This document shows positions 1,540-5,901 of a DNA stretch of 64,000 nt, in pieces (within the stretch, counting starts at the first letter, position 1; each line of letters begins with the position of its first letter). The DNA is from Dehalococcoides mccartyi. GTDB lineage: Bacteria > Chloroflexota > Dehalococcoidia > UBA2979. The stretch spans positions 64,760 through 128,759 of the forward strand of contig CAMBFG010000006.1 in the NCBI GenBank assembly GCA_945865925.1, in the 5' to 3' direction. The position numbers and the translations under genes are program-made. The notes under the pieces were generated by a model, which was given only the letters and a program-made list of their open reading frames with translations, was not told where the DNA came from and searched no databases.

Positions 1540-3270
1540 TCAGGCCGTCCCGAAGCCCTCTTCCGAGGCGGGGCGGAGGTCAAGCACCTCCAACTGCAGG
1601 CGCGCCTCACCCCCGAACTGGTCCGAGCGGAACGTGTACACCACGTCGGCGTCCTCGCCAGCGGCGACGGCCGAGGTGGCCTGCCTGAACGCGATCGCCC
1701 GCCACGTCACGTTGCCAGCGCGCAGGGCCATCTGCAGGTGCGCGCCATCGGCGCCCACCGTGCGGTTGTTCGCGACGCGCACGCCGCGTGCGAGGAACAC
1801 CGGCGCCGGGTTCCCATTCCCGAACGGTCCGAGCAACCCCAGCCACTGCACCATCCGTCGGTCCACCTCGGTCAGCGGCAGTTCGGCATCGATCTCCAGC
1901 GCCGAGATCATCGCGTCCGGGTCGAGGTGGCGCGCAGTGTCCTCGGTCAGTCGTGCGCGCATCTCCGGGATCCGTTCGGGGGCGATCGAGAAGCCGGCGG
2001 CGGCACGGTGCCCGCCGTAGCGCAGGAAGAGGTCGCTGTTCCGCTGCAGCAGGGCGGTCACATCGAACGCGGGGATCGAGCGGCAGGAGCCGCGCCCTTC
2101 GCCCCCCTCAATGCCGATGGCGATCGCTGGTCGGTGGAACTCTTCCGCCAGCCGCGCTGCCGCGAGGCCGATGATGCCCGAGGACATCTCGCTGGAGTCC
2201 ACCACGATCAGCGGCGGTGGTGGGTCGCCCGCGAGCGACCGTGCCAGCTCGACCGCCTGCGTCGTCGCGGTGCGGCGGTCGTCGTTCAACCGCTCGATCT
2301 CGGCCGCGATCGTGCGTGCCTCCTCGATCGTCGGCGCCAGCAACAGGTCAAGCGCGATCCGTGCGTGCGCCATCCGCCCCGCGGCGTTGATCCGAGGCCC
2401 GATCACCCAGCCGATGCCCTCCGTGTCGATGAGCCGCGGCTCGATCCCCGCGACCTCGCACAGCGCGAGTAGCCCCGGTCGAGTCGTCGTGCGTAGGGCC
2501 TCAATGCCGATGCGGAGCAGGTCGCGGCACTCCCCGAGCAGCGGCGCGAGGTCGCACACAGTGCCGAGGGCCACGAGCGCGCGATGCGGCGCGGGGTCGT
2601 ACTGCTCCCCCAGGCGGTCGTACAGGTCGTGGACGACCTTGTACGCGACGCCCACCGCCGCCGGTTCCGAGCCGTACGAGTTCCCGTTCAACTTCGGGTT
2701 CACGATCGCGAGGGCGTCCGGCAGCAGGTCGGGGATCGTGTGGTGGTCGATCACCACCACGTCCATCCCCAGCCCGTTCGCTTCCGCCACCTCGGTCACC
2801 GCGGAGGTGCCGGTGTCCGCGGTGACGAGGAGCGTTGCGCCCTGGTCGGCGAGGCGGCGAATCGCGCGCACATTCGGCCCGTAGCCCTCGGTGAACCGGT
2901 CCGGCAGGTACGGCATGGGCTTCGCGCCGAGGGCACGCAGACCCTCGGTCAGTACCGCGGTCGCCGTCACCCCGTCCACGTCGTAGTCGCCGTACACCGC
3001 GACCGTCTCGCCGGCCCGGCACGCGCGCGCCAAGCGGTCGACGGCGACATCGAGGTTCGGCATCAGTTGGGGGTCAGTGAGGTCACGCGGGGTGCCGAGG
3101 AACCGTCGCGCCGTCTCGGTGGTGGTGACGCCTCGGCGGGCGAGCAGTAGACGCATCAGCGGCGGTAGCCCCGCCCCGGCGTCCGCGAACCCCGCGAGGT
3201 CAGGCGCAGCGTCGAGGCGCCAGCGACCGCCCGAGCCGGTCAGGACGCGCGCAGAGACTAGGCTGCCCAA
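1540..3270 (-). CDS. recJ: Single-stranded-DNA-specific exonuclease RecJ (TTG start as given in track)
   Basis: DHH motifs (VYGDYDVDGVTATAVL, DHH), DHHA1-like C-terminus, N-terminal region aligns with E. coli RecJ. Confidence 0.9.
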   Translation of the reverse strand: MGSLVSARVLTGSGGRWRLDAAPDLAGFADAGAGLPPLMRLLLARRGVTTTETARRFLGTPRDLTDPQLMPNLDVAVDRLARACRAGETVAVYGDYDVDGVTATAVLTEGLRALGAKPMPYLPDRFTEGYGPNVRAIRRLADQGATLLVTADTGTSAVTEVAEANGLGMDVVVIDHHTIPDLLPDALAIVNPKLNGNSYGSEPAAVGVAYKVVHDLYDRLGEQYDPAPHRALVALGTVCDLAPLLGECRDLLRIGIEALRTTTRPGLLALCEVAGIEPRLIDTEGIGWVIGPRINAAGRMAHARIALDLLLAPTIEEARTIAAEIERLNDDRRTATTQAVELARSLAGDPPPPLIVVDSSEMSSGIIGLAAARLAEEFHRPAIAIGIEGGEGRGSCRSIPAFDVTALLQRNSDLFLRYGGHRAAAGFSIAPERIPEMRARLTEDTARHLDPDAMISALEIDAELPLTEVDRRMVQWLGLLGPFGNGNPAPVFLARGVRVANNRTVGADGAHLQMALRAGNVTWRAIAFRQATSAVAAGEDADVVYTFRSDQFGGEARLQLEVLDLRPASEEGFGTA

Positions 3271-3500
3271 TGCCTGCTTCTTCTCGAAGCAATCTGCACC
3301 ACGGGGTCCTTGTCTTCCGACAGCGCCTTACCAACATCCACCGAAGGCTTATAGAGGCCCCGGATGCTTTGCGTCTTCTCGACACACCTCAGGAGGGCAA
3401 CCTTCGGCACGGTGTAGGGACTCGCGAATACTGCACCCTTGAGGCGCCTCATCGCGCGCCAGTCTCCCCCGCTGATCCGTACCAGAGATTGCATTTGCAC
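3258..3500 (-). CDS. Small ORF (80 aa, GTG start) overlapping RT 3' end and recJ 5' end; may instead be non-coding structured spacer
   Basis: ORF track; lies in low-GC islet; no motif; overlaps repeat-rich 178-nt spacer 3271-3448. Confidence 0.2.
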   Translation of the reverse strand: MQMQSLVRISGGDWRAMRRLKGAVFASPYTVPKVALLRCVEKTQSIRGLYKPSVDVGKALSEDKDPVVQIASRRSRHWAA

Positions 3501-4660
3501 TCGCTTAGCTCGAGCAGGCGATCATCATGATCACAGAACTGTTCTCGGATCCAGGGCCAATGAGATGCCAGTCGCGGATCGCGGCTTGCCAGCGAGAGGA
3601 CACGCCTCAAGGCCGTGATCTTCCGCCCGTATGCGTCGTCGTCCCAGCGGTTCCGGAGCGTCTGTACTGCTTCAAGCACTGTTCCCCGCGCATCTAGGCC
3701 CGAGAGAACGTCAAACCCCCAGTACTGCGCAAACTCAGCTGGTCGGGAGTATCGAACCTTCGCGACGTTGATGTTCAACCCGAGGACATTCAGTTCCTCG
3801 CTCGCTCGGAACAGGAGTCGTTCGCAATCGGCCTTCGTTCGGGCAGCGATGACCATGTCATCGGCGTACCTGAAGTAGCGTGCGTCGACAGGATCGCATG
3901 TCGCCTTGATGTTCGTGTCAAAGGGTAGGAGATACGCGTTCGCCAACACCCGCGAGCAATCCCCGATCAAGTCCTGAGGGAGCCCCTTCGAACTCCTTGC
4001 GTACATCGTCACACGGTTGTTCCATGCACCTAGGAGGTACGAGAGAACCTCAATCGCGAGTGGCGCTTCAGGTGCGTGCTGTCGGAGAAGTCGTTCGAGG
4101 CGCGGCAAGTCGATCGAATCGTAAAAGTTCGCGATGTCGAAACTGACGAACCACGAGTCTTCGGGGCTATCTCGGAAGGTAATCCAGAGAAGCTTCCAGT
4201 ATTCGTTCCAGTTCTTTACCCATGCCGCTGGGTTATAGGCGGAGGGAGGGGCATATGTATCATCAACGACTTCTTGGATCAGCCTTTGCGCTTGACCATC
4301 TTCAGTCCTCCGCCGGGCTCCACCCAAAGACCAGCCACCGAACGTGCCCGGAATGGCGTCACGCGCGAGCGGCTCGTCCAGCGCGCGGACACACGCGAAA
4401 TAGACGATGTAGTCGCGGAGATCGAAGACGGGGATGAACCTCGGGACTCCTGCTGACTTTGGTGCAGACAGCAAGCCCACGATTGACCGTGGCGAGTAGT
4501 CGCCGCGAAGGACTTCTGCTTCGAGCGCCGCGAGCCCTCGTCGGCGATTCTTGAAGTCATCAGGAGTACCAAGACGCACGAGGCAGTCCTTGTAGAGGTG
4601 GTCAAGGAAGCTGTCTTGCGTGCGGAAGTCGAAGCGCGGCCCGCCCCCTGCTTCGACCAC
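3449..4660 (-). CDS. Reverse transcriptase, group-II-intron-like (G2L-type), stand-alone, 403 aa
   Basis: RT motifs in order: RT0-like LRGDYSPRSIVGLL; motif 1-2 PKSAGVPRFIPVFDLRDYIVYFACVRAL; motif A FVSFDIANFYDSIDL; motif B' SKGLPQDLIGDCSRVLANAYLLPFD; motif C FRYADDMVI; motif D/E LNINVAKV, YWGFDV; ~110-aa thumb/X-like tail; no En domain; GC visibly lower than flanks. Confidence 0.85.
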   Translation of the reverse strand: MVEAGGGPRFDFRTQDSFLDHLYKDCLVRLGTPDDFKNRRRGLAALEAEVLRGDYSPRSIVGLLSAPKSAGVPRFIPVFDLRDYIVYFACVRALDEPLARDAIPGTFGGWSLGGARRRTEDGQAQRLIQEVVDDTYAPPSAYNPAAWVKNWNEYWKLLWITFRDSPEDSWFVSFDIANFYDSIDLPRLERLLRQHAPEAPLAIEVLSYLLGAWNNRVTMYARSSKGLPQDLIGDCSRVLANAYLLPFDTNIKATCDPVDARYFRYADDMVIAARTKADCERLLFRASEELNVLGLNINVAKVRYSRPAEFAQYWGFDVLSGLDARGTVLEAVQTLRNRWDDDAYGRKITALRRVLSLASRDPRLASHWPWIREQFCDHDDRLLELSECKCNLWYGSAGETGAR

Positions 4661-4665
4661 GACGG

Positions 4666-5901
4666 TTAGCCCTCGTAACGGTTGAAGATCAGGCAGGAGT
4701 TGTGGCCGCCGAAGCCGAGCGAGTTCGACATCGCGTACTTCAGCGCGAGGTCACGCGGCGCGCCCGGCACGTAGTCCAGGTCGCAGTCCGGGTCCGGCGT
4801 GAGCAGGTGCAGCGTCTGGTGGATCTTCTGGTCGCGGATCGAGAGTACTGCGACCGCCGCCTCGAGCCCCCCGGCCGCGCCGAGCGTGTGCCCGAACATC
4901 GACTTGCTGGAGGAGATCGGGATGCCCGGAGCCGACTCGCCGAAGACCGCCTTCAGCGACATCGTCTCGAACTTGTCGTTCAGCGGGGTGCTCGTGCCGT
5001 GCGCGTTGATGTAGTCGATCTCGGCGGGCGAGATGCCTGCTTTCTTCAGCGCCAGTCGCATCGCGCGCGCCGCGCCCTCGCCGCCTTCCGAAGGCTGGGT
5101 GACGTGGAAGGCGTCCGCCGACTGCGCGTACGAGGTGACCTCCGCGAGGATCGCTGCCCCCCGCGCCTCGGCGTGCTCGCGGTCTTCGAGGACGAGGATG
5201 CCTGCGCCTTCGCCGAGCACGAACCCGTCACGGTCGAGGTCGAACGGCCGGCTCGCCGTCTCCGGGTCGTTGTTGCGCGAGAGCGCCCTCGATGCCGCGA
5301 ACGCGGCGATCGTCATGCGTGTGACAGAGGCCTCTGCGCCGCCGGTCACCATCGCCACCGCGTCGCCTCGGCGGATCGTCTCGAACGACGTGCCGATGGC
5401 GTCCGCACCCGAGGCACAGGCAGAGACGGTGTTGAAGTTGGGCCCGCGCAGCCCGAACCGGATCGAGGTCTGGCCGGCGGCCATGTCCGGAATGAACATC
5501 GGCACCAGGAACGGCGAGACGCGCGTGGGGCGCTCGAAGAAGACCTTGAACTCCTGTTCGAGTGTTTCCATCCCGCCGATGCCCGACCCGATCATGCACC
5601 CGATCTCGTCCGCGTCGGCCGCGACATCGAGGCCGGAGTGCTCCAGCGCCTCACCCGATGCCATCACGGCGAGGTGGGTGAAGCGGTCCATCCGCTTCGC
5701 CTCCTTGCGGTCGAGGTATGTCGAGAGGTCGAACTCGGGCACTTCGCCCGCCACACGGGTCGGCAGGTCGGCCGTCTCCACGCGGGTGATCGGGCGGATC
5801 CCGTTCGTGCCGGCGAGCAGCGCTTGCCACGTCGCCTCGCGGCCCGCGCCCACGGCGCTCAGCATCCCCACACCGGTCACTACGACTCGACGGTTCGCCA
5901 T
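4666..5901 (-). CDS. fabF: 3-oxoacyl-ACP synthase II (KAS II), copy 1; start ATG 5899-5901 overlapping upstream stop (TGATG)
   Basis: KAS active-site context (SACASG, HGTSTPLND, GHTLGAAG); track ORF N-terminal extension judged spurious. Confidence 0.9.
   Translation of the reverse strand: MANRRVVVTGVGMLSAVGAGREATWQALLAGTNGIRPITRVETADLPTRVAGEVPEFDLSTYLDRKEAKRMDRFTHLAVMASGEALEHSGLDVAADADEIGCMIGSGIGGMETLEQEFKVFFERPTRVSPFLVPMFIPDMAAGQTSIRFGLRGPNFNTVSACASGADAIGTSFETIRRGDAVAMVTGGAEASVTRMTIAAFAASRALSRNNDPETASRPFDLDRDGFVLGEGAGILVLEDREHAEARGAAILAEVTSYAQSADAFHVTQPSEGGEGAARAMRLALKKAGISPAEIDYINAHGTSTPLNDKFETMSLKAVFGESAPGIPISSSKSMFGHTLGAAGGLEAAVAVLSIRDQKIHQTLHLLTPDPDCDLDYVPGAPRDLALKYAMSNSLGFGGHNSCLIFNRYEG

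Follow-up and report, generated by a model that had tools for sequence, protein, structure and literature searches.

A UG13b-type reverse transcriptase gene, frameshifted and probably inserted as a bare reading frame at the start of recJ in a Dehalococcoidia genome

The window, the whole 64,000-nucleotide stretch of Dehalococcoides mccartyi DNA analysed here (contig CAMBFG010000006.1), contains on its minus strand a reverse transcriptase (RT) gene between fabF2 and recJ. The annotated open reading frame (ORF; 3449-4660, minus strand) runs from a GTG start to a TGA and encodes a 403-aa product covering the fingers, the palm and the first half of a helical domain. Pfam RVT_1 matches this ORF with 54 bits. 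The catalytic motifs are in place, with Asp175 of motif A within FDIANFYDSI (4136-4138, minus strand) and YADD of RT motif 5/C at residues 265-268 (3857-3868, minus strand; reverse complement TAC GCC GAT GAC). In an alignment of 84 family sequences, the columns of D175, D267 and D268 are invariant, all three residues are present in the window copy, and the window RT deviates in 0 of the 48 columns with at least 90% conservation. No endonuclease domain was found in the 403-aa ORF. The stop codon of fabF2, TAA (4668-4666), sits 5 nt upstream of the RT GTG. The original prediction, made from the letters of the DNA, had described the GTG-started ORF with its RT motifs, the nearby fabF stop and the missing endonuclease domain correctly.

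The 403-aa ORF is a frameshift-truncated product and not a complete compact RT, because the 178 nt downstream of it, previously taken for a spacer, encode the C-terminus of the family in another frame. One G of the Trp388 codon is deleted (3497-3499, minus strand): a sister lineage, L184, reads GAG TGG CAA ATG in this region while the window reads GAG TG CAA ATG. The match to homologues ends after ‘...RLLELSE’ (residue 387), and the annotated product consists of native residues 1-387 followed by 16 missense residues. Native residues 404-467 are encoded by a 64-codon ORF (3258-3452, minus strand), recognised by translation and phmmer, whose ATG (3452-3450) overlaps the TGA of the 403-aa ORF (3451-3449) as ATGA. 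This out-of-frame tail matches 19 homologues (phmmer, best E 9.7e-12), and the Logan assemblies list it as a gene of 64 aa. With the frame restored, the complete UG13b-type RT gene comprises 467 codons (3258-4660, minus strand), and L184 carries an intact 467-aa allele, P0119, at the same site. A programmed frameshift was considered and rejected: neither a slippery heptamer nor a homopolymer lies at the site, and the sister allele reads straight through in one frame. The RT gene of the window strain was probably inactivated very recently; the refuting condition that the original prediction set for itself, homology showing a truncated pseudogene copy, applies in part. An IS interrupts another copy from this clade, P0002, ~10 residues beyond the break in the window copy.

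Among the PADLOC models, RT_UG13b scored best by far, with 320 bits (E 5.8e-96) for the 403-aa ORF and 329 bits for the frame-repaired protein; the runner-up was UG21 with 109 bits. The repaired protein covers positions 10-412 of the 430 in the profile, as does the intact homologue P0003, while coverage by the 403-aa ORF stops at position 341. The UG13b C-terminal region (profile ~340-430) is present in the window DNA but frame-shifted, and the uninterrupted ORF of ~435-480 aa expected of an intact UG13b gene is absent from the window copy. Every homologue tested with the PADLOC models was likewise assigned to UG13b. Judged by its sequence, the window gene is a stand-alone RT of the rare, defence-associated UG13b group in the UG/Abi superfamily; in a set of 1.84 billion representatives, the family (E≤1e-30) falls into no more than 139 clusters at 50% identity. 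UG13b is already a catalogued UG/Abi RT group, and the passages on it in the catalogue give its anti-phage role as predicted from loci only (Mestre et al. 2022, PMC9226505). A literature search found no experimental paper on UG13. The earlier mention of DRT/UG-type defence RTs was apt, and the earlier impression that the gene matches no described system was mistaken. A phage origin was rejected, since viral contigs contained only 6 weak-to-moderate matches, at 24-34% identity.

The window RT resembles the UG13b group in its length (467 aa after repair, against a family median of 441), its motif set, its stand-alone organisation and a G+C content lower than that of its surroundings. It differs in its membership of a Dehalococcoidia subclade that is divergent (nearest relatives at 57-62% identity, the rest at 30-45%), in its place within a core operon and not in a mobile element or defence island, in its long retention under strong constraint, and in the frameshift of the window strain.

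The group-II-like or G2L identity that had been proposed for this gene did not hold. The group II maturase model TIGR04416 gave 61.8 bits, well short of its cutoff of 300, and kinship to G2L4 was rejected in that the UG13b family profile aligns with it over only ~60 residues around YADD (E 2.7e-5). Group II RTs and G2L4 have a thumb/X plus a DNA-binding domain, whereas the window RT has an alpha-repeat domain at its C-terminus and no kinship beyond the palm; the supposed thumb/X-like tail is the beginning of this alpha-helical-repeat domain. The gene was rightly said not to be part of an intron: no group II intron RNA was matched by Rfam, either at E≤10 over 2800-5200 or at the gathering score over the whole window, and the DNA flanking the RT is coding. 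A retron RT was also rejected (NF038233, 51 bits; cutoff 235), and for an msr/msd there is no room at the locus and no Rfam match. The corrected classification replaces a G2L repair RT paired with recJ by a member of the experimentally untouched UG13b group.

We modeled the frame-repaired RT with AF2 (pLDDT 91.5, pTM 0.90) and found ~ten helices beyond the palm. The piece encoded by the out-of-frame tail is predicted with a pLDDT of 93-98, and according to this model the last five helices are absent from the annotated 403-aa product. In the model an alpha-helical repeat (alphaRep) replaces the thumb after the palm, which is a Class 1 feature, and the C-terminal helical domain aligns with those of AbiA, DRT6 and DRT4. 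The structural and HMM-neighbour evidence thus points to a Class-1-type architecture, with a fingers-palm core and a C-terminal alpha-helical-repeat domain. The highest full-length TM-score was 0.60, to DRT6. DRT6 (UG12) and DRT4 (UG15) are single-gene Class 1 defence RTs (PDB 9wy8, 9vdo, 9l9s), with which the window RT shares a sequence identity of only 12-14%. Class 1 enzymes are also marked by trimer or hexamer assembly and by a priming tyrosine on a flexible loop. The priming residue of the DRT enzymes is Tyr125, for which no equivalent is assignable in the window RT: the Tyr residues conserved in the family, Y55, Y87 and Y180, all lie within canonical RT motifs, and in a flexible loop at 131-147, modelled with a pLDDT below 50, no Tyr, Ser or Thr is invariant, Y142 being Tyr or Phe across the family. 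The identity to AbiK, Abi-P2 and AbiA is 11-13% (PMC9508834, PMC11077055); the helical domain of the window RT, with its ~10 helices, is smaller than theirs, and the HEPN domain carried by AbiA is absent.

In addition to the gene itself, its borders are informative. The RT gene is an insertion: in all 15 RT-free relative loci where both genes were found, fabF2 is directly followed by recJ. The earlier proposal of a foreign gene that entered the co-directional array fabD-fabF-fabF-recJ was right. The initiation region of the RT (4661-4674, minus strand) consists of a Shine-Dalgarno-like GAGGG (4674-4670) in the end of fabF2, the TAA stop and a 5-nt spacer, CCGTC. It reads GAGGGCTAACCGTC GTGGTCG in the window, leading into the RT, and GAGGGATAGCCGTC(C/T) GTGGTCG in the RT-free loci L005 and L007, leading into recJ. 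The Shine-Dalgarno site and start-codon position of recJ in RT-free relatives are, in other words, used by the RT in the window. The left junction is bracketed by the first 27 nt of the RT ORF (4634-4660, minus strand), which have a host-like G+C content of 81%, and homology to the RT family starts at residue 9 (RFDF); the junction is not placeable more exactly because the homologue P0002 also begins with MV. At the right junction (3250-3261, minus strand), the RT stop TAG (3260-3258) is followed by TCTCT, after which recJ homology resumes (GCGCGCGTCCTGACC). The recJ gene (1540-3270, minus strand; TIGR00644, 477 bits) begins at a TTG (3270-3268), the sole in-frame recJ start after an upstream stop. 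This start overlaps the last codons and the stop of the RT by 13 nt, and both the TTG and the overlap are kept in L184.

The two ends of the inserted unit carry an imperfect direct repeat of 19 nt. On the coding strand, the left copy (4636-4654, minus strand) reads GAAGCAGGGGGCGGGCCGC and the right copy (3262-3280, minus strand) reads GAAGCAGGCATTGGGCAGC, the latter encoding the RT C-terminus RSRHWAA. A repeat of such quality is found in 0.35% of random window pairs, an estimate made post hoc. The inserted unit was found to contain no non-coding DNA beyond the ORF and no promoter-like sites at its ends; the two terminator-like matches fall on the non-coding strand and are no better than chance. 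An IS, an integron or an integrative cassette was rejected as the vehicle, with no terminal inverted repeats, attC, integrase or transposase in the unit. No mobile unit could be outlined from related loci either, where DNA homology is confined to the ORF. In an ancestor of this Dehalococcoidia lineage, a bare ORF of ~1.4 kb was probably inserted into the first recJ codons, right after fabF2. Such an insertion would lead to translation of the RT from the former Shine-Dalgarno site and start position of recJ, and to a recJ that now starts at the TTG within the last RT codons. The locus would then show cleanly how a defence-type gene can enter the translation start of an essential-type gene as nothing more than an ORF; the RT captures the recJ ribosome-binding site and supplies recJ with a new overlapping start.

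The RT has co-diverged with its flanks under strong purifying selection. Between the window and L184, dS is 0.49 for the RT and 0.45-0.54 for the flanks, and dN/dS is 0.035 for the N-terminal part of the RT and 0.027 for its tail, compared with 0.08-0.13 for fabD, fabF and recJ. In the locus tree, L184 groups with L005 and L007 (bootstrap 88% for protein and 100% for nucleotide), and the RT-positive lineages, the window and L184, are not monophyletic; to explain this by one gain and vertical descent, a further loss or a recombination event has to be assumed, the branching order of RT-positive and RT-negative lineages being resolved in part only. Some lineages have kept the arrangement under strong constraint; sister lineages are without the RT. 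Defence genes normally show fast turnover. One that stays in a core operon for long, at a dN/dS of about 0.03, is unusual, and this counts against the explanation that we prefer.

This explanation, which we consider probable, is that a UG13b RT was inserted bare into the recJ start and is frameshifted here, and that its intact form is an untemplated, ssDNA-making defence enzyme. By analogy to AbiK, Abi-P2, AbiA, DRT4 and DRT6, the intact enzyme would carry out protein-primed, untemplated ssDNA synthesis and may, as a single protein, provide phage defence of the abortive-infection type, with no dedicated ncRNA and no partner protein. DRT4 and DRT6 perform protein-primed, random ssDNA synthesis (PMC12783706). 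The helical domain of AbiK is required for oligomerisation and for holding DNA, and deletion of 46 C-terminal residues abolishes defence by AbiK and Abi-P2 (PMC9508834). The intact sister allele P0119 is a candidate for the first UG13b biochemistry.

The frameshift itself can be read in other ways. The gene might still be functional, either through the 403-aa product alone or as a two-piece enzyme with the 64-aa fragment, which would be made by termination-reinitiation at the ATGA and whose stop would then couple to the recJ TTG. The two overlaps fit this chain, as the ATGA (3452-3449) joins the two RT ORFs and the 13-nt overlap joins the tail ORF to recJ; the N-terminal part retains all 48 highly conserved residues, the tail is without stop codons and shows little decay, the lesion appears fixed in 5 samples, and the break in P0002 lies close to the same point. 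However, a very recent lesion would equally show no decay, the ATGA overlap may be coincidence, and one native helix of 16 residues (388-403) is gone in either version. Together with the loss of defence in AbiK truncated by 46 residues (PMC9508834), this makes a functional gene unlikely in our view. The frameshift could also be a sequencing or assembly artefact, with the gene intact in the organism. The carrier assemblies all come from one study series (ERR37191xx, ERZ272802xx), for which a shared systematic error is conceivable, but 8 contigs, which stem from 5 samples and were built by no fewer than two pipelines (ENA and Logan), agree in the DNA of the lesion, the missing base belongs to a GG dinucleotide and to no homopolymer run, and none of the 8 contigs carrying the exact FabF2 has an empty site or an intact variant. 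We regard an artefact as very improbable.

Two further readings concern the partners of the enzyme. Since several UG/Abi RTs depend on an ncRNA, UG13b might copy a dedicated ncRNA beside or inside the locus, like DRT2, DRT9 and DRT10, and upstream gaps of 250-650 nt at some UG13b loci could house one. The gaps flanking UG13b RTs are, however, variable and often tiny (medians of 140 and 110 nt, many below 60 nt), with at least 8 loci having <85 nt on both sides, and in the window the RT has 5 nt before its start and overlaps recJ at its end. There is no Rfam match, the DNA homology of related loci stays within the ORF, and the architecture and closest structures are those of untemplated Class 1 enzymes; an adjacent ncRNA was rejected, and we hold this reading to be highly unlikely. 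A conserved partner gene was also rejected, with none in 69 loci: neighbour clustering returned resolvases at 6 of the 69 and HsdR at 4, with no other recurring neighbours, and eight UG13b contexts inspected singly were all different. The functional link to recJ in the original prediction can be updated to a domesticated Class-1-type RT, translationally chained from fabF2 through the RT to recJ, that might serve cellular DNA repair or ssDNA metabolism instead of phage defence; RecJ would, for example, process ssDNA made by the RT. If true, it would for the first time show an Abi-like untemplated polymerase in a housekeeping role. The low dN/dS over a dS of about 0.5 in the recJ transcription unit and the conserved translational overlap are consistent with such a role, as are the published ties of DRT products to host ssDNA exonucleases, ExoI for DRT4 (PMC12783706) and SbcB for DRT10. 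On the other hand, no RecJ, FabF or FabD homologue was found near any of 96 UG13b-type loci, other family members reside in conjugative elements and Abi islands or near type I R-M genes, and the enzyme is not of the G2L4 type. The fabF-recJ adjacency is older than the RT insertion, and close relatives do without an RT there. In addition, RecJ degrades DNA 5′ to 3′, and the 5′ end of protein-primed products is blocked. We therefore consider a cellular role with RecJ very unlikely and take the adjacency as an accident of the insertion site.

The base composition of the locus sets the RT apart from its flanks. The RT has a G+C content of 0.58-0.59 compared with about 0.70 in the flanks, and a GC3 of 0.67-0.70 compared with 0.89-0.92 in recJ, fabF and fabD; G+C rises to 0.75 at about 3260, the edge of the islet. 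The low-G+C islet noticed earlier is thus real, but it extends over 3258-4660, the complete RT gene, and not over the 403-aa ORF alone. This low G+C does not indicate a recent arrival, because the same insertion is found with the same GC3 (0.67) in L184, a lineage at a dS of about 0.5. Other low-G+C patches in the window mostly have a host-like GC3 and were rejected as further islets.

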